From: Alphaproteobacteria bacterium
GTDB taxonomy: Bacteria > Pseudomonadota > Alphaproteobacteria > SP197
Reading direction: 5' to 3'
DNA: 64,000 nt
Assembly (NCBI GenBank): GCA_965228895.1
Contig: OZ245842.1
Coordinates: 4,704,001-4,768,000 of the forward strand
In this document: positions 18,047 through 28,268 of the stretch, one piece after another
How positions within the stretch are numbered: position 1 is the stretch's first letter
How the letters are laid out: each line of letters opens with the position of its first letter
Position numbers and translations under genes: made by a program
The notes under the pieces: model-generated
Database searches by the model: none
The model's input: only the letters and a program-made list of their open reading frames with translations
What the model was told of the DNA's origin: nothing

Positions 18047-18187
18047 GCGACACGCGCCACCGGTACGCCGCATCCCGGACGACCACCGGGAGATCCGGGA
18101 TCCAGGCACACGACTGTCGCCTTGATCGGTACATCCCGTGTTCATGGGTACCGGCTCGCGCTTCGCTTGGCCGGCACGCGGTGTCGC
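18047..18187. repeat. Degenerate REP doublet (CATCCCGG…CCGGGATCCA / TGGGTACCGG…CCGG type) between convergent genes
   Basis: Two short hairpins in inverted orientation, with outer arms GCGACAC/GTGTCGC. Confidence 0.5.
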
Positions 18188-18678
18188 TATGATGCCGCGC
18201 TTACGTCCCTGGCGTCGCAGGCCTCGATGTAGCGGCGCAGGATGGCTGACGTATCGTCTTTGCCGGCCAGTTCCTGGTTGGCGAAGTCGATGGCGACGTG
18301 CTCGTGTTCTGTGAGGATCTTGAGCGCCGGAAGATCCTCCGGCGGCGCCATGGCTTCCAGCCCTTCGAAGTCGTCGATGTAGCCGGGGTAACGCGTCGCC
18401 ATGTAGGTGACCATCTCGTGCCAGCTCAAGTCCTGGTGCCGGGCGACGTGGCTCTTGCCCTCTTCGATCAGCACCGCGTCGTCGCGCTGCTGAAGGCCGT
18501 GTTTGGCGAGCAGCGGCCGGACACTGTTGGCGGCGCATCGTTCCACCTCGCCCAACAGATGCAGCTTGTCGCTGGCACCAGGCTCGCTGAAGTGTTCGGC
18601 GAGACCGTGGAAGTAAGCTTCGCCGGCGACCTCCTCCTCGAAGTACTGCAGCAACGTCTTCAGGTACGTGTCACTCAA
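18187..18678 (-). CDS. Hypothetical ferritin-like protein
   Basis: Helical protein with 'EEEVAGE…E' and 'EHE' carboxylate/His pattern; probable TTG start overlaps the betC stop. Confidence 0.6.
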   Translation of the reverse strand: MSDTYLKTLLQYFEEEVAGEAYFHGLAEHFSEPGASDKLHLLGEVERCAANSVRPLLAKHGLQQRDDAVLIEEGKSHVARHQDLSWHEMVTYMATRYPGYIDDFEGLEAMAPPEDLPALKILTEHEHVAIDFANQELAGKDDTSAILRRYIEACDARDVSAAS

Positions 18679-20197
18679 TGTCCGTCGTCTCCCGTTCGTC
18701 GACATCGCCTATGCTGAGACCCCTGAGCGAAGCGCCGCCCCTGTAATAGGCCACCGAGGCGTCGCGCATCGGCTGGAAGTCCCAACTTTGTGCCCTACCC
18801 TCGGCCATGGCGGCGCCGACCGCAAGCCGGCGTTGCTGGCTCGCCATGATGGCGGCGGTCAGGTGTTCAAAGTCCCATCGCCGCGCCACTTCGTCCGCGA
18901 AAGCCTGTTCGACCGCGGCCAGCGCCGTCTCGCCGGCGCGGTTGGTTATCTCGTCAGGATCGGTTTTCAGGTCGAACAGCATGGTCGGATAGGCGCTCGA
19001 CGCGATGTACTTCCAGCGGCCCCAGCGCAGCATGACCACCGGCCCGGCGGTGCCTTCCGACAACAGTTCGCCGATCACCGAATCCGGCCAGTCGTCCGAG
19101 GTGTCGTCCATCAAGGGCAACAGGCTCGAACCATCCAGCACATCCGGCAGATAGGCGAGCTCGGTTTCGGCGATCGCGGCGAAGGTCGGCAGCAGGTCGA
19201 CAAGCGAGACGTGAGACCCGCAGCGCGACGGTTTCTTGCCGGGTACGCGCACGATCAACGGCACGCGGACTGCCGGTTCGTAGAAGTTCTTTTTGTACCA
19301 GAGGCCCCGCTCGCCCAGCATTTCGCCGTGATCGGCCGTCACCACGACCACGGTGTCGTCGGCCATGCCGGCCTGCTCCAGCGTATAGAGCATGAGGCCG
19401 ACGTAATCGTCGATCATGGTGATGTTGGCGTAGTAGGCGCGGCGCGTCCGAATGATGTCGGCCTCACTCGGCGTATAGAGGTCCATGCCGTGGTGATAAG
19501 AGAGATCGCGGGCATGGGGATCGCGCTCCTCGATCGGCATGAACGGCACCTTCGGCAAATCGATGGCCGCGTCTTTGTACTGGTTCCAGTAGTACGGCAG
19601 CGCGACGAAGGGATCGTGCGGATGGGTGAACGAGACGACCAGCGCCATCGGCCGATCGTCCGCCGAGCGGGCGTGATCGAAGATGAAGCGCTTGGCCTCG
19701 TGGGCGACCTCCTCGTCATAGTCCAACTGGACCGAGCGCCGGCAGGTGCCCGATTGGCGCACCGGCGTCAGGTCCATGAACCGTTCCTTGACCCCGTTGC
19801 GCCAGTCGGGCGTCCACAGGAAATCGGCGGGATAGATGTCGGTGGTCAGCCGCTCCTCGAACCCGTGCAACTGGTCGGGACCGACAAAGTGCATCTTGCC
19901 GGCCAGCGCCGTGCGGTAGCCGGCGTGCCGCAAGACATGGGCGAAGGTCGGGATATCGGCCGGAAACTCCGAGGCATTGTCGAACGCGCCGATACGCGAC
20001 GCCAACTGGCCGGACATCATGGAAAACCTGGAGGGCGCGCAGAGTGGGAAGTTGCAGTAGGCGCTGTCGAAGACCGTGCCGGTTTCCGCCAGCCCTTGCA
20101 TGTGCGGCGCGCGCACGATGTCATGGCCATAGAACGGCAGACAACGGGCCGCCATCTGGTCGGCCTGGATCATCAGGATGTGGGGTGTCTTTGCCAA
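18671..20197 (-). CDS. betC: Choline sulfatase
   Basis: 'ILMIQADQ', formylglycine motif CAPSR, 'GKMHFVGPDQLHGFEERLTTDIYPADF', 'SQQRR…SWDFQP'. Confidence 0.88.
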   Translation of the reverse strand: MAKTPHILMIQADQMAARCLPFYGHDIVRAPHMQGLAETGTVFDSAYCNFPLCAPSRFSMMSGQLASRIGAFDNASEFPADIPTFAHVLRHAGYRTALAGKMHFVGPDQLHGFEERLTTDIYPADFLWTPDWRNGVKERFMDLTPVRQSGTCRRSVQLDYDEEVAHEAKRFIFDHARSADDRPMALVVSFTHPHDPFVALPYYWNQYKDAAIDLPKVPFMPIEERDPHARDLSYHHGMDLYTPSEADIIRTRRAYYANITMIDDYVGLMLYTLEQAGMADDTVVVVTADHGEMLGERGLWYKKNFYEPAVRVPLIVRVPGKKPSRCGSHVSLVDLLPTFAAIAETELAYLPDVLDGSSLLPLMDDTSDDWPDSVIGELLSEGTAGPVVMLRWGRWKYIASSAYPTMLFDLKTDPDEITNRAGETALAAVEQAFADEVARRWDFEHLTAAIMASQQRRLAVGAAMAEGRAQSWDFQPMRDASVAYYRGGASLRGLSIGDVDERETTDIE

Positions 20198-20342
20198 ACC
20201 GTCGCTCCCGGATGCCGGAACTTCCGGCGCCCTCAGTTGTGCGTCTCGACCATAGCCCATCTGCGTACGGCGCGGACATCTTACGATTGCCCCGCCATCA
20301 CGACAGCGCGATGATGCGCTGCGCCAACGATGGAGGTCCGCC

Positions 20343-21449
20343 ATGGCCGACCTGACCGGTTTCACCAATTCCGGCGACCGCCTTGAGCTCTCCTGGAGCG
20401 ACGGCCGCCACGATACGGTTTATGCGATCTGGCTGCGCGACAACTCGCCCAATCCGGACGCGCGCCACGCGAGCGGCCAGAAGCTTTTCGACATCACCGA
20501 CATCGACGACGACGTCATGATCGACCACGTCGCTAATGGCGGCGGCATGGTGGAGATCCGCTTCGCACCGGACGGCCACGAGGCGCGCTACGACGTCGAC
20601 TGGTTGCGTTTGAACGCCGCGCCGACGCACCGTGATCACCCGCGCCGCCTTTGGGGTGCGGAGCTGGGCGACGTCATGCCGGTTTTTCGTTATGGCGAGG
20701 TCGTCAGCAATGACACCGCCAAGCGCGCCTGGCTATCAGCCATCAGCGAACTGGGTTTTGCGCTCCTGAAAGAGACGCCGTGCGAACCTGAAATGGTGTG
20801 CCGTGTCGCCGAGCTGTTCGGCTATGTGCGCGAGACGAACTACGGGCGCTTCTTCGAGGTCAGGACCGAGCCGGACCCGATCAACCTGGCCTATACGCCC
20901 ATGGGCCTGTCCTGCCATACCGACAACCCCTATCGCGATCCGGTGCCAGGCCTGCAGTTGCTGCACTGTCTGGTCGCCGATAACGATGGCGGTGAGTCCG
21001 TCGTCGTCGACGGGTTCAAGGCGGCCGCGATTCTGCGCGACGAAGCGCCGGATGACTTTGAGCTCCTGACCCGCCACGCCGTGCCGTTCCGGTTTTCCAG
21101 CGACAGCGCCGACCTCGTCGCGCGCGCGCGGCTGATCAGCCTGGACGACAAGGGCGACGTCGCGGAGGTGCGTTTCAACAACCGGTCGATCGCCACCTTC
21201 GATCTGTCCGCCGACATCATGCCCGCCTTCTACCGCGCATACCGCCGATTCGCCGAGGTACTGCAGCGCCCCGAACTGGAAGTCGGTTTCAAGGCCGGCC
21301 CCGGTGACCTCTTCATCGTCGACAACCAGCGTGTGCTGCACGGGCGGCGGACGGTCAGCGGCTCGGGCCGCCGGCATCTGCAAGGCTGCTACGCCGACAA
21401 GGATTCGTTGGAGAGCACGCTGCGCCTGCTCGAACGGGAGACCGCATGA
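20343..21449 (+). CDS. tmpA: Fe(II)/2-oxoglutarate dioxygenase, gamma-butyrobetaine hydroxylase family (TmpA-like)
   Basis: N-terminal GBBH-like domain 'WLRDN', 'RETNYG', 'HTDNPYRDP', 'DNQRVLHGR', 'RHLQGCY'; adjacent HD oxygenase. Confidence 0.75.
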   Translation: MADLTGFTNSGDRLELSWSDGRHDTVYAIWLRDNSPNPDARHASGQKLFDITDIDDDVMIDHVANGGGMVEIRFAPDGHEARYDVDWLRLNAAPTHRDHPRRLWGAELGDVMPVFRYGEVVSNDTAKRAWLSAISELGFALLKETPCEPEMVCRVAELFGYVRETNYGRFFEVRTEPDPINLAYTPMGLSCHTDNPYRDPVPGLQLLHCLVADNDGGESVVVDGFKAAAILRDEAPDDFELLTRHAVPFRFSSDSADLVARARLISLDDKGDVAEVRFNNRSIATFDLSADIMPAFYRAYRRFAEVLQRPELEVGFKAGPGDLFIVDNQRVLHGRRTVSGSGRRHLQGCYADKDSLESTLRLLERETA

Positions 21450-21856
21450 TCCGCGGTATCAATCACATCACGCTCTCCATTGCCGACCTCAACCGCTCGC
21501 TTACCTTTTACCGAGATGTTCTGGGATGCCGTGTCGCCGCGCGGTGGGATGACGGCTGCTACCTCGAAGCCGGCGATCTTTGGCTGGCGCTCGTGGTCGA
21601 AGACAACGTGCGATCGGCGCCGCTACCGGAATACACACATCTTGCGTTCGACGTCGCCGCCGCCGACTTTGCCGCTATGACCGATCGGGTCGGACAATCC
21701 GGCGCAGAGGTCTTCCAGGACAACAGCACCGAGGGTGAGTCGCTCTATTTCCTCGATCCCGACGGCCACAAGCTTGAGCTTCATGTCGGCAGCCTGGGCA
21801 CGCGCCTTGACGAGATGCGGCGCGAACCGTGGGACGGTCTTGAGGTTCTCGGCTAG
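21446..21856 (+). CDS. FosA-family VOC metalloenzyme (fosfomycin glutathione transferase-like)
   Basis: 'GINHITL', 'ARWDDGCYLEAGDLWLAL', 'YTHLAF', 'NSTEGESLYFLDPDGHKLELHVGSL..RL' track FosA closely; ATGA overlap with tmpA. Confidence 0.8.
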   Translation: MIRGINHITLSIADLNRSLTFYRDVLGCRVAARWDDGCYLEAGDLWLALVVEDNVRSAPLPEYTHLAFDVAAADFAAMTDRVGQSGAEVFQDNSTEGESLYFLDPDGHKLELHVGSLGTRLDEMRREPWDGLEVLG

Positions 21857-21868
21857 GAAGAAACTGCC

Positions 21869-22486
21869 ATGATCGCAAAAACGCTTCTGTCCGATCTGAC
21901 GCCCGACAACGTCGTCGACAAGCTGGACGCCCTGTTCGCCGCGATTGCCGGGACGAGCTACTTGGGCGAACCCATCACCATCGCCGAGCACATGCTGCAA
22001 TCGGCCGCCTGTGCCCAACGCGATGGCGCCGATGACGCGCTGATCGCCGCCGCGCTGCTGCACGATGTCGGCTACTACGTCGATCCCGCACCGGACAACG
22101 AGAACGAAACCGACCTTAGAAAACGCCATGATCTGGCCGCCGCACGTATCCTGGCGCCCGTATTGCCGGCCGCCGTGACCGAGCCGATCCGGCTTCACGT
22201 CGACGCCAAGCGTTATCTCTGCGCCATCGAACCCGCTTACTGCGACAAGCTTTCCGATGCGTCGAAGCACACCATGCGGCTTCAGGGCGGCGTCATGGAT
22301 GCCGATCAGGCCAAGGTCTTCGCTGGCGAAGCCTATTGCGAGGACGCGGTCCGCCTGCGCCGATGGGACGACGAAGGCAAGACGCCGGATGTTGCCGTGC
22401 CCGGTTTCGAAGCCTATCGCGCCATGCTGGAAACCCTGTCGCACGAGCATACGGGAGCTTCCAGAGCAGGCTTTGCCTCCGCCTAG
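21869..22486 (+). CDS. tmpB: HD-domain mixed-valent diiron oxygenase (TmpB/PhnZ-like)
   Basis: 'YLGEPITIAEHMLQ', 'ALLHD', 'RLHVDAKRYL', 'LSDASKHTMRLQGG', 'LRRWDDEGK'. Confidence 0.75.
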   Translation: MIAKTLLSDLTPDNVVDKLDALFAAIAGTSYLGEPITIAEHMLQSAACAQRDGADDALIAAALLHDVGYYVDPAPDNENETDLRKRHDLAAARILAPVLPAAVTEPIRLHVDAKRYLCAIEPAYCDKLSDASKHTMRLQGGVMDADQAKVFAGEAYCEDAVRLRRWDDEGKTPDVAVPGFEAYRAMLETLSHEHTGASRAGFASA

Positions 22487-22572
22487 CCAACCCGCCGCAA
22501 TTGGAGTAAGAGCGGTCGATATCGACTGAGCGCGGCGATCCACTTAACCGCGACGCGCGTAAGGACATTGTT

Positions 22573-22761
22573 ATGGGCGTTATCATCATTCTTCTCGCCA
22601 TCTCGACCCTGGGCGTCCTGTTCCTGGGCCTGGGCGGCTTTATCGCCGGCGGTCAGTTCAACGAGAAGTACGGCAACCGGATCATGCAGGCCCGCGTCGT
22701 GCTGCAAGGCATCACCGTGCTGTTGATCATGCTCGCCCTGCTTGCCAGCGGTTCGAGCTGA
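22573..22761 (+). CDS. Twin transmembrane helix small protein (HIG1-like)
   Basis: 'GGQFNEKYGNRIMQARVVLQG'; conserved position upstream of pduO-etfB. Confidence 0.8.
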   Translation: MGVIIILLAISTLGVLFLGLGGFIAGGQFNEKYGNRIMQARVVLQGITVLLIMLALLASGSS

Positions 22762-23325
22762 GTGGTCAAACTCGACAAGATCTATACGCGCGGCGGCGAC
22801 AAGGGCGAGACATCGCTGGGCGACGGTCGCCGGGTCGCCAAGCACGACCTGAGGGTCGCCGCCTACGGCACCGCCGATGAGGCCAACAGCGTGCTGGGGC
22901 TGGCCCGCCTGCAGACGGACGGCGACGACGACGCCATGCTGGCGCGCATCCAGAACGATCTGTTCGATCTGGGCGCCGATCTCTGCACGCCCCACGACGC
23001 CAAGCGGGCGGCCGGCGCGCTTCGGATTACCGCCGATCAGGTGGCCCGTCTGGAGGCTGAAATCGATGCCATGAATGAGGCGCTGAACCCGCTGACCTCG
23101 TTCATTCTGCCCGGCGGCAAGCCGGCAGCGGCCTGGCTCCATCTGGCGCGCACCATTGTGCGGCGCAGCGAAAGGCTGATGACCGAGCTGGCCGGCAGCG
23201 AAGAGGTTAATCCGGAGGCCGTCAAGTACGTGAACCGGCTCTCCGACCATTTGTTTGTCCTGGCGCGGCGCCTTAATGACAACGGCACTGCCGATGTTTT
23301 GTGGCAACCGGGCAGCACCCAATAG
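22762..23325 (+). CDS. Cob(I)alamin adenosyltransferase (PduO type)
   Basis: 'KIYTRGGDKGETSL', 'AYGTADEANS', 'FILPGG', 'RRSER', 'YVNRLSDHLF'. Confidence 0.93.
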   Translation: MVKLDKIYTRGGDKGETSLGDGRRVAKHDLRVAAYGTADEANSVLGLARLQTDGDDDAMLARIQNDLFDLGADLCTPHDAKRAAGALRITADQVARLEAEIDAMNEALNPLTSFILPGGKPAAAWLHLARTIVRRSERLMTELAGSEEVNPEAVKYVNRLSDHLFVLARRLNDNGTADVLWQPGSTQ

Positions 23326-26316: not shown

Positions 26317-27285
26317 ATGAAAGCCGGCGACCCCCTCCTCTATCTTTCCAGCGCGACACTCGCGTCTCTCGACGTCAGCACGGACGACGTGGTGGCCGCG
26401 ATCGAGGGACTGTTGAAGGGCCGCTTGGCCGACAAGGTCTGGAATGCGCCCAAGAGCGCCCTGGAGCCGGGCCGCCGCCGTTACTTCATGAACACCCTCT
26501 CGGTTTCCGATGATCCGCCCTATGGCGCGGTCAAGGCTCTGGGGCTCAGCCCCGACAACCCGTCGCGCGGCATGGAGTCGATCGGTTCACTGGTCGTGCT
26601 GCTCGACAGCGAGACCGGCTGGCCGATCGCCGTGATGGACGGCAACTGGGTGACCGCGATCCGCACGGCCGGCCTAAGCGCCGTCGCAGCGAAGTACATG
26701 GCGCGACCGGACTCAGCGATCATCGCCTTTATCGGCTGCGGCGTGCAGGCGCGCAGCCATCTCGACGCTTTCGCCCAGATGTTTCCGCTGAAAGAAGTCC
26801 GTGCCTTCGGTCGTGGTGCCACGAACCGCGATCGTCTGTGCGGGATTGCCAAGGACAAGGGCCTTGATGCGGTCGCCAGCGACACGGCGCAGGCGGCCAT
26901 CGAGGGCGCCGATCTCATCGTCACCTCGGTGCCGGTCGTGCTCGACGTCGACCCGTTTCTTGACGCCACCTGGCTGAAGCCGGGCGCCTTCGCCGCCATA
27001 ACCGATCTGGCCCGCCCCTGGATCGACGACAGCCTGAGCGCGCTCGACCGCGTCGTCGTCGACGATTTGGAGCAGGAGAGAACGTTGCCCAAACCCCTGG
27101 TCGATCCGGCGCTGGTTGCCGGCGATATCACGGGGCTTGCCACCGGCGAGGTGGCGGGCCGCGAAAACGACGACCAGACGACCGCGTTTATCTTCCGGGG
27201 TCTTTCGCTGGGCGATTTGGCGCTTGCCTATCTGGGCTACGAACGCGCCCGCGCCGTAGGGGCCGGGGTCGAACTGGAACGTTAG
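26317..27285 (+). CDS. Ornithine cyclodeaminase / mu-crystallin family protein, copy 1
   Basis: 'TAIRTAGLSAVAA', 'IGCGVQARSH', 'FRGLSLGDLA'. Confidence 0.88.
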   Translation: MKAGDPLLYLSSATLASLDVSTDDVVAAIEGLLKGRLADKVWNAPKSALEPGRRRYFMNTLSVSDDPPYGAVKALGLSPDNPSRGMESIGSLVVLLDSETGWPIAVMDGNWVTAIRTAGLSAVAAKYMARPDSAIIAFIGCGVQARSHLDAFAQMFPLKEVRAFGRGATNRDRLCGIAKDKGLDAVASDTAQAAIEGADLIVTSVPVVLDVDPFLDATWLKPGAFAAITDLARPWIDDSLSALDRVVVDDLEQERTLPKPLVDPALVAGDITGLATGEVAGRENDDQTTAFIFRGLSLGDLALAYLGYERARAVGAGVELER

Positions 27286-27299
27286 GCCGAGTCTTCGTT

Positions 27300-28268
27300 G
27301 TGAAAGCCGGCGAACCGCTTCTTTATCTCTCCCGCGCGGCTCTCGAAACACTCGCTATCAGCACGGCCGATGGCGTTGCCGCGATCGAGAGGCTGTTCAC
27401 GGGCCGCGCCCAAGGTACCGTCTGGAACGCGAGCAAAGTCGGGATCTCACCCGGCGATGGCCGCTACTTCTTGAGTACGCTGTCGGCCGCCAACGATCCG
27501 CCCTATGCGGCGGTAAAGGCACTGGGTCTCAACCCGGCGAACAAGGCCGATGGTCTCGCCTCGATCGGCGCGCTGGTCGTGCTCCACGACAGCGACACCG
27601 GCTGGCCGATCGCCATGATGGATGGCAACTGGGTGACGGCGATCCGAACGGCGGGCCTGAGCGCCGTTGCCGCGACGCATCTTGCCAGGAAAGACGCGAG
27701 CACGATGGCCTTCATCGGCTGCGGCGCGCAGGCAAGAAGCCACCTCGATGCTTTCGCTGATCTGTTTCCTCTCCAAGAGATCCGCGCCTTCGGACGGGGC
27801 ACGGCCAACCGCGATCGTCTATGCGCCATCGCCCGCGACAAAGGTTTGAAGGCGATGGCCAGCGCGACCGCCCGCGAAGCGGTCGAGGGCGCCGATATCA
27901 TCGTCACTTCGGTTTCTGCTGGTCCCGGCCTCGAACCCTTCCTTGATGCCGCCTGGCTGGGCGCGGGCGCCTTTGCGGCGATCACAGACCTACACGGGCC
28001 GTGGCGCGCCGACACCTTCACGGCGTTTGACCGCATCGTTATCGACGATCTGGAACAGGACCGCGACTTGGGCAAACCTTTGGTCGATCCCAAACTGGTG
28101 AGCGGTGACTTCACCGGCCTCATCACCGGTGACGTTCCCGACCGGAAAAACGAAAAGGAACGGACCGCCTTCATTTTTCGCGGTCTGGCCCTGGGCGATC
28201 TGGCGCTTGCCTACCTCGCCTATGAGGCCGCCCAGAAAGCGGGTATCGGACTCAGCCTGGAACGTTAG
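27300..28268 (+). CDS. Ornithine cyclodeaminase / mu-crystallin family protein, copy 2
   Basis: Colinear tandem paralog of identical length (322 aa); GTG start. Confidence 0.88.
   Translation: MKAGEPLLYLSRAALETLAISTADGVAAIERLFTGRAQGTVWNASKVGISPGDGRYFLSTLSAANDPPYAAVKALGLNPANKADGLASIGALVVLHDSDTGWPIAMMDGNWVTAIRTAGLSAVAATHLARKDASTMAFIGCGAQARSHLDAFADLFPLQEIRAFGRGTANRDRLCAIARDKGLKAMASATAREAVEGADIIVTSVSAGPGLEPFLDAAWLGAGAFAAITDLHGPWRADTFTAFDRIVIDDLEQDRDLGKPLVDPKLVSGDFTGLITGDVPDRKNEKERTAFIFRGLALGDLALAYLAYEAAQKAGIGLSLER

Follow-up and report, generated by a model that had tools for sequence, protein, structure and literature searches.

We asked why a gene of the FosA type should lie inside an operon for phosphonate breakdown. 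Enzymes of this type are among the chief causes of resistance to fosfomycin, and what they do natively in environmental bacteria is unsettled. The question is raised by a 64,000-nucleotide (nt) stretch of DNA from an Alphaproteobacteria bacterium (assembly GCA_965228895.1, contig OZ245842.1, positions 4,704,001 to 4,768,000; hereafter the window, with positions counted from its first letter), in which the gene for a FosA-like VOC metalloenzyme stands between tmpA and tmpB. The analysis showed that tmpA, the VOC gene and tmpB are one tightly coupled unit (Table 1). Judged from its sequence and setting, the VOC enzyme may quite possibly be an accessory detoxifier of fosfomycin-like phosphonates that is co-expressed with phosphonate scavenging, and it is towards this reading that we tentatively lean.

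The layout of the unit is as an earlier note on this DNA had described it. The list of open reading frames (ORFs) and the letters of the window both give three co-directional ORFs on the plus strand, an ATGA at 21446-21449 in which the tmpA stop and the VOC start are combined, and a 12-nt gap between the VOC stop (TAG, 21854-21856) and the tmpB start (ATG, 21869). Promoter-like and terminator-like sites were looked for inside the unit, on the plus strand from 20343 to 22486, and none was found. The three family identities proposed in that note, TmpA, FosA-like VOC and TmpB/PhnZ, were also correct by profile and PDB matches. TmpA passes the 400-bit cut-off of the NCBIfam TmpA equivalog NF049936 with 438 bits, and its best PDB match, L. 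caerulea TmpA (6NPB), scores 333 bits; the protein consists of the domains TauD (PF02668) and GBBH-like_N (PF06155), and its iron triad H192-x-D194...H333 aligns with that of 6NPB. For TmpB, the best PDB match is TmpB 6NPA (137 bits), followed by PhnZ (108 bits). Because it scores under both NCBIfam cut-offs (193 versus 300 bits on NF049941, and 199 versus 214.6 on TIGR03276, Phn-HD), it is a divergent member of the family. The diiron ligands H41, H65-D66, H87, H110 and D167/168 are kept, as is the YxxE substrate loop (Y31-x-x-E34). This loop and the diiron motif belong to PhnZ/TmpB, and the loop Glu pairs with the ammonium group of the substrate, according to the available text of PMC8177086. 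By family membership, TmpA would hydroxylate C1 of 2-trimethylaminoethylphosphonate (TMAEP) or a close quaternary or amino analogue, and TmpB would then cleave the carbon-phosphorus (C-P) bond to yield glycine betaine and phosphate. A second PhnZ/TmpB-like HD oxygenase, 39% identical, is encoded outside the window in G000, the genome to which the window belongs (G000:C1:1285173-1285712, locus L277), where no TmpA-like gene was found within 2 kb.

A search for the gene order in other genomes, which the earlier note had set as a test, found it again, with a narrow spread. The survey covered 33 genomes of the window's order, all from one family and five genera, and the VOC gene was scored as present at an E value of 1e-25 or better. 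Two of the 33, G000 and G002, carry it; G002, from the window's genus, has the order betC-tmpA-VOC-tmpB-pduO, as in the window. In a second genus, the metagenome contig L141 runs from the 3' end of tmpA through VOC (71% identical) and tmpB to pduO. Furthermore, a contig of run X2, which comes from a study separate from the probable source run, covers positions 19500-22980 with 44 differences and represents a near-identical strain. Since the arrangement recurs in G002, L141 and the X2 contig, it is not a matter of chance. A search with the VOC protein returned 11 clusters with identities of 72-87%, below which lies a large cloud of matches at no more than 68%, and all three clade members with known context (G000, G002 and L141) have the gene at the same tmpA-tmpB junction.

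FosA-like genes in general do not share this setting. Neither TmpA nor TmpB was found near them in the 80 best loci from species-representative genomes (47-62% identical, up to 6 kb) or in 79 other metagenome loci, and for 106 of these 159 unlinked loci the sequence extends 1.2 kb or more in either direction. A general tie between FosA-like genes and phosphonate genes was rejected on this count (0/159). Most frequent beside the unlinked loci are TetR regulators (14), HlyD (10), ABC exporters (9) and MFS pumps (6), and genes for phosphonate use are absent from this list, so that unlinked FosA-like genes appear in a detoxification setting and not a phosphonate one. From the side of the oxygenase, 401 genomes were sampled from the class, and 75 carry a TmpB-like gene. 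An adjacent TmpA-like gene was seen in 20 of the best 29 TmpB-like loci from other genomes and in 7 of the 40 inspected among the 55 remaining places; a VOC gene by TmpB was found in neither set (0/69 in the class).

Within the family of the window, the VOC gene is present at some loci and absent from others. Of the 33 genomes, 11 have an intact orthologous tmpA-tmpB-pduO locus, with TmpB at least 61% identical, and tmpA and tmpB directly abut in nine of them; because these 9 of 11 loci do without the VOC gene, it is dispensable. Genome G001, of the window's genus (TmpA 91% and TmpB 90% identical), has no VOC gene and joins tmpA to tmpB by an ATGA overlap, at which point G000 has 445 extra bases. 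In the second genus, L141 and G045 are 95% identical in DNA on both sides of the junction. The insert at this junction measures 416 bp in L141 versus 6 in G045 and is almost only the 411-bp VOC ORF. The VOC gene of L141 is bounded by GTGA and ATGA overlaps, the VOC-tmpB ATGA there replacing the 12-nt spacer of the window, and in G045, where the VOC gene is absent, tmpA and tmpB overlap directly (ATGA). In the contigs of three runs, no joint was seen that leaves out precisely the VOC gene. TmpB of L141, with the VOC gene, and TmpB of G045, without it, are 97% identical; they differ at 6 of 198 residues, none of which is at a metal ligand or in the YxxE loop. Nothing suggests that TmpB is fed by the VOC enzyme, because it is this similar with and without the VOC gene. 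The order in G045 (acyl-CoA dehydrogenase, nitronate monooxygenase-like, 172-aa protein, tmpA, tmpB, pduO, etfB) is the ancestral layout, and the window is that layout plus betC and the VOC gene. In two further genomes, G046 (locus L245) and G012 (locus L246), tmpA and tmpB are found only as frame-broken fragments, whereas the adjoining pduO is intact; some species of the family are thus losing the oxidative operon as a whole.

The age of the insertion was judged from its divergence. Between G000 and G002, the synonymous divergence (dS) of the VOC gene is 0.69, versus 0.60-0.74 for tmpB and tmpA, and between G000 and L141 it is 1.5, versus 1.2-1.4 for the flanks. The ratio of nonsynonymous to synonymous divergence (dN/dS) of the VOC gene is 0.09-0.14, indicating purifying selection, and the tree of the flanking proteins requires at least two changes of VOC state. 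Because the VOC dS tracks that of the flanks, dN/dS is low and the tree needs these changes, the comparison speaks for a single old insertion that predates the split of the two genera, kept under purifying selection in some lines and cleanly lost in others. A recent transfer of a cassette between the two genera was rejected, since the flanks are 66-84% identical and the VOC dS equals the flank dS. An explanation by a mobile element was rejected as well: in L141, the insert of 416 bp is so little longer than the 411-bp ORF that neither an attC site nor repeats would fit.

By similarity and phylogeny, the VOC protein belongs to the FosA branch and not to the FosX branch. It matches PF00903, is 50.7% identical to FosA3 and, among PDB entries, scores 144 bits against FosA PA1129, 89 against FosB, 54 against M. 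loti FosX (1R9C) and 52 against Listeria FosX. In the 857 plasmid records that match it, identity stays below 60% throughout. A phylogeny, which the earlier note had named as a check, was run with FastTree, rooted on FosB6 and FosD, and placed the protein in an environmental subclade of the FosA branch: the 14 clade members group together (support 88) inside the cloud of environmental FosA-like sequences, and reference FosA proteins (FosA3, FosA5, Kluyvera, Pseudomonas) form a separate, weakly supported group (83). Position 44, the putative counterpart of the FosX Glu general base, is variable in the clade (D in seven members, N in four, A in two and another residue in one). The FosX-like, water-adding step that had been suggested for this enzyme is unsupported on both counts.

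The active site appears suited to holding a small phosphonate by chelation to Mn. The Mn ligands His7, His64 and Glu110 of FosA are H7, H65 and E111 in the VOC protein and are invariant in 14/14 clade members, the K+ loop Ser94/Glu95/Ser98 is T95 (a conservative change), E96 and S99, and the fosfomycin contacts Arg119 and Tyr100 are R120 and Y101. The channel residues W34, Y39, W46, D103 (D104 in the VOC protein) and H107 (H108) are kept, and so is Thr9. Of 16 residues held to be essential in FosA, the protein shares 12 and has Thr for Ser94, while Ala, Leu and Trp replace Cys48, Tyr65 and Tyr128; the list is that of the available text of PMC11933065, which cites Beharry and Palzkill 2005. Five of the seven fosfomycin contacts of K. 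pneumoniae FosA, as given in an excerpt of PMC10779102, are identical, with Ser replaced by Thr and Lys by Gln. Ala48, Trp129 and Gln91 also occur widely among unlinked FosA-like sequences of the cloud (112, 113 and 99 of 183) and mark an environmental subfamily, not a link to tmpAB. The residues specific to the clade are R3, C38, D69, F90, M124 and D130, none of which is a known catalytic position.

As an accessory detoxifier, the reading we tentatively prefer, the VOC protein would be a Mn2+/K+-type enzyme that is co-translated with TmpA and TmpB and not needed for their chemistry. Its most likely job would be epoxide opening in reactive phosphonates of the fosfomycin kind, with a thiol such as glutathione as the probable nucleophile and water as a possible one, and this activity would protect a fosfomycin-sensitive MurA while the phosphonate-scavenging genes are on and such compounds are met. 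We favour this reading because the site is of the Mn-chelate type, the enzyme is not needed by TmpA and TmpB, MurA of G000 carries its active-site Cys (in GGCAIGTRP), and G000 has the capability for glutathione, in that a glutathione synthetase is present. The detoxification setting of the unlinked FosA-like genes agrees with such a role. In E. coli, phn and pst genes influence fosfomycin susceptibility, as stated in an excerpt of PMC7566553. Several observations weigh against the preferred reading. On the Fos_GSH profile NF000496, the protein scores 167.1 bits (166.2 in the genome search), under the cut-off of 180. Lys90, a fosfomycin contact that is Lys in 7/7 reference FosA proteins, is Gln91 in 14/14 clade members, and Cys48, Tyr65 and Tyr128, all replaced here, are kept in 7/7 references. 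Gln36, Ser50, Lys90 and Arg93, reportedly described as glutathione contacts by Rigsby et al. in 2007, are changed in the VOC protein. At 10 loci, the 260 bp 5' of tmpA, scanned by eye and with one simple pattern, held no convincing Pho box, the sole pattern match being a single half-site in genome G005, and the operon contains no phosphonate importer. Finally, the exact tmpA-tmpB position with overlapping codons in two genera argues for a functional tie, which a safeguard explains loosely.

Two rival proposals place the enzyme in the chemistry of phosphonate breakdown itself. In one, the VOC enzyme opens fosfomycin or a related epoxy-phosphonate to a 1-hydroxy-phosphonate that the HD oxygenase then cleaves, so that the antibiotic becomes a source of phosphorus. 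All three proteins bind small phosphonates, by family matches, and translational coupling puts the VOC gene directly before tmpB (by an ATGA overlap in L141). There are also precedents in excerpts of the literature: Rhizobium huakuii PMY1 grows on fosfomycin, its C-P cleaving enzyme being undescribed (PMC3266647), and M. loti FosX, in a phn operon, is thought to be metabolic (PMC6122793). We nevertheless consider this route distinctly unlikely. The protein is of the FosA branch, position 44 has no conserved acidic residue, a thiol adduct at C1 is not a 1-hydroxy substrate, and TmpA would be idle. Moreover, TmpB retains the YxxE Glu that pairs with ammonium (PMC8177086, available text), it hardly differs between L141 and G045, and an HD oxygenase lies beside 0/159 other FosA-like loci. 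The candidate phosphonate operon of the earlier note is therefore upheld in its identities, its coupling and its recurrence, but the fosfomycin-salvage route attached to it is left without support by the FosA branch, the YxxE loop and the 97% identical TmpB. Highly doubtful, in our judgement, is the broader claim that the FosA-like enzyme takes a working part in the catabolism of phosphonates, turning an epoxide or other reactive phosphonate, be it fosfomycin or a natural analogue, into a substrate from which the HD oxygenase releases phosphate, and that this was the ancestral role behind FosA-type resistance.

In the other proposal, the substrate of the VOC enzyme is not fosfomycin but an intermediate of the quaternary-amine phosphonate pathway or an analogue of one. 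The reaction could, for example, be elimination, isomerisation or epimerisation of 1-hydroxy-TMAEP or of a similar 2-substituted phosphonate, with the metal chelating the oxygens of hydroxyl and phosphonate. The exact tmpA-tmpB position, long conserved in two genera, speaks for this, as do the six residues that are the clade's own and positions 91-94, where Lys has become Gln, followed by D-N-S versus Q-N-R in P. aeruginosa FosA; the loss of two positive charges and gain of one negative would suit a cationic substrate. However, Gln91 is too common in unlinked FosA-like sequences (99/183) to be a mark of the tmpAB link, the six residues include no known catalytic position, and TmpA and TmpB form an adjacent pair without a VOC gene in 27 other loci. 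To our knowledge, no such chemistry has been described for the FosA branch, and we regard the proposal as quite improbable. The gene might instead be a passenger, an ordinary environmental FosA-like resistance gene that borrows the operon promoter and has no adaptive link to phosphonates. Its dispensability and frequent loss, a GC content at third codon positions of 0.72 (below 0.83 in tmpA and 0.76 in tmpB) and the lack of a fixed neighbourhood in the wider FosA-like family would agree with this. A mere passenger is nonetheless rather unlikely, given that G000, G002 and L141 all have the gene at the same junction, that it has diverged as far as its flanks under purifying selection, and that both junctions in L141 were remodelled into 4-nt overlaps. 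So long a stay at one site argues for a benefit of co-expression.

The features of the locus are collected in Table 1. The promoter-like element 5' of tmpA is a visual call and not the result of a statistical motif search; it sits in a divergent region of ~80 bp common to tmpA and betC, and a comparable (C)GATTG...N...(G/C)ATGAT(G) was seen by eye at equal distance 5' of tmpA in orthologous loci of other genera. The listed betC ORF extends to 20368, from a TTG that overlaps the tmpA start. The TIGR03417 match begins at residue 61, and in G001 the counterpart of residues 1-41 of the long ORF is antisense DNA at the start of tmpA; the true start is probably the ATG near 20260. The betC gene adjoins tmpA in G000 and G002 and lies ~3.7 kb from it in G005; it was not found 5' of tmpA in the ~4.9 kb covered in G045 or the ~3 kb covered in G001. 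A divergent betC fits the quaternary-amine theme of the operon.

Table 1. Features of the tmpA-VOC-tmpB locus and its divergent flank, in window positions.
Feature	Position	Strand	Remarks
tmpA	20343..21449	+	368 aa; Fe(II)/2-oxoglutarate dioxygenase, 2-trimethylaminoethylphosphonate hydroxylase type
FosA-like VOC metalloenzyme gene	21446..21856	+	136 aa; start overlaps tmpA stop (ATGA)
Spacer, VOC stop to tmpB start	21857..21868	+	12 nt
tmpB-type HD-domain diiron oxygenase (C-P bond cleavage)	21869..22486	+	205 aa
Promoter-like element TTGCCC-N17-GATGAT	20287..20315	+	~30 nt 5' of tmpA, spotted by eye
betC choline sulfatase, divergent neighbour (context)	18671..20260	-	TIGR03417 626 bits (cut-off 433); start uncertain

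Three other observations concern the surroundings of the unit. The 172-aa protein encoded at 18187-18705 on the minus strand of the window has no Pfam or NCBIfam match, and in the protein atlas it falls in hypothetical clusters only, where rubrerythrin/ferritin-like families are no more than weak leads (0.86-0.88). In G045 and, by upstream DNA, at most loci of two other genera, its gene stands directly beside tmpA in divergent orientation, and a conserved partnership with the tmpAB locus is possible. In G005 (L112 3225-3413 / L300 3962-4150), a short TmpB-like fragment lies just 5' of tmpA; it is 57% identical and corresponds to residues 100-162, suggesting an old partial duplication or rearrangement. 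Further along the plus strand of the window, at 26317-28268, the ORF list gives two tandem 322-aa paralogues with near-identical N-termini (MKAGDPLLYLS and MKAGEPLLYLS), which look like a tandem duplication.

The locus is a natural experiment, in that matched lineages with and without the FosA-like gene differ at one exact site between near-identical flanking enzymes. We consider it of moderate interest, chiefly because these natural alleles make the role of the VOC gene testable. With them one can also test whether the FosA branch is connected with the scavenging of phosphonates, a connection already suspected for FosX of M. loti, and what function is served by the numerous FosA-like proteins from the environment that have Gln at position 90 and Ala at position 48. 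If the VOC enzyme is only a safeguard, the addition to knowledge is modest: resistance-type genes can be wired into nutrient-scavenging operons.

No description of a FosA-branch gene wedged between tmpA and tmpB was found in open-access papers or preprints. The available text of PMC10574752, a paper on TmpA/TmpB phosphonates, makes no mention of FosA or fosfomycin, and the open-access literature that names both PhnZ and FosA consists, by titles and abstract openings, of plasmid papers. The word undescribed, used in the earlier note, thus holds for a FosA-type gene inside tmpA-tmpB but not for a Fos gene in a phosphonate operon, which is known from M. loti fosX.

Compared with the FosA enzymes (PA1129, FosA3 and K. 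pneumoniae FosA), the window protein shares the VOC fold, ~50% identity, the Mn ligands and the K+ loop; it differs in its score below the cut-off, in four site changes and in its separate environmental subclade, and its gene is chromosomal, inside a catabolic operon. The TmpA/TmpB pair of L. caerulea (PDB 6NPB and 6NPA), reportedly the work of Rajakovich et al. 2019, belongs to the same two families and has the same gene order, whereas TmpB of the window has diverged (193 bits versus the NF049941 cut-off of 300). In L. caerulea, tmpA-tmpB is a two-gene operon according to the available text of PMC10574752, and the window has a third gene between the two. Rhizobium huakuii PMY1 offers a physiological route from fosfomycin to phosphate via hydroxylated phosphonates; in the available text of PMC3266647, however, the proposed C-P substrate is 1-hydroxy-2-oxopropylphosphonate, the route is Pho-independent and no link to a TmpB-type enzyme is shown. 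A likeness in genetic setting is found in M. loti, where fosX lies within the phn (C-P lyase) operon and a metabolic rather than a resistance role has been proposed, as excerpts of PMC6122793 and PMC12413358 have it. Both cases place a Fos-family VOC gene inside an alphaproteobacterial phosphonate operon, but the subfamilies differ (the window protein scores 54 bits to 1R9C versus 144 to FosA), and M. loti combines a C-P lyase pathway with a hydrolase that has a Glu base, whereas the window has the oxidative TmpA/TmpB route.

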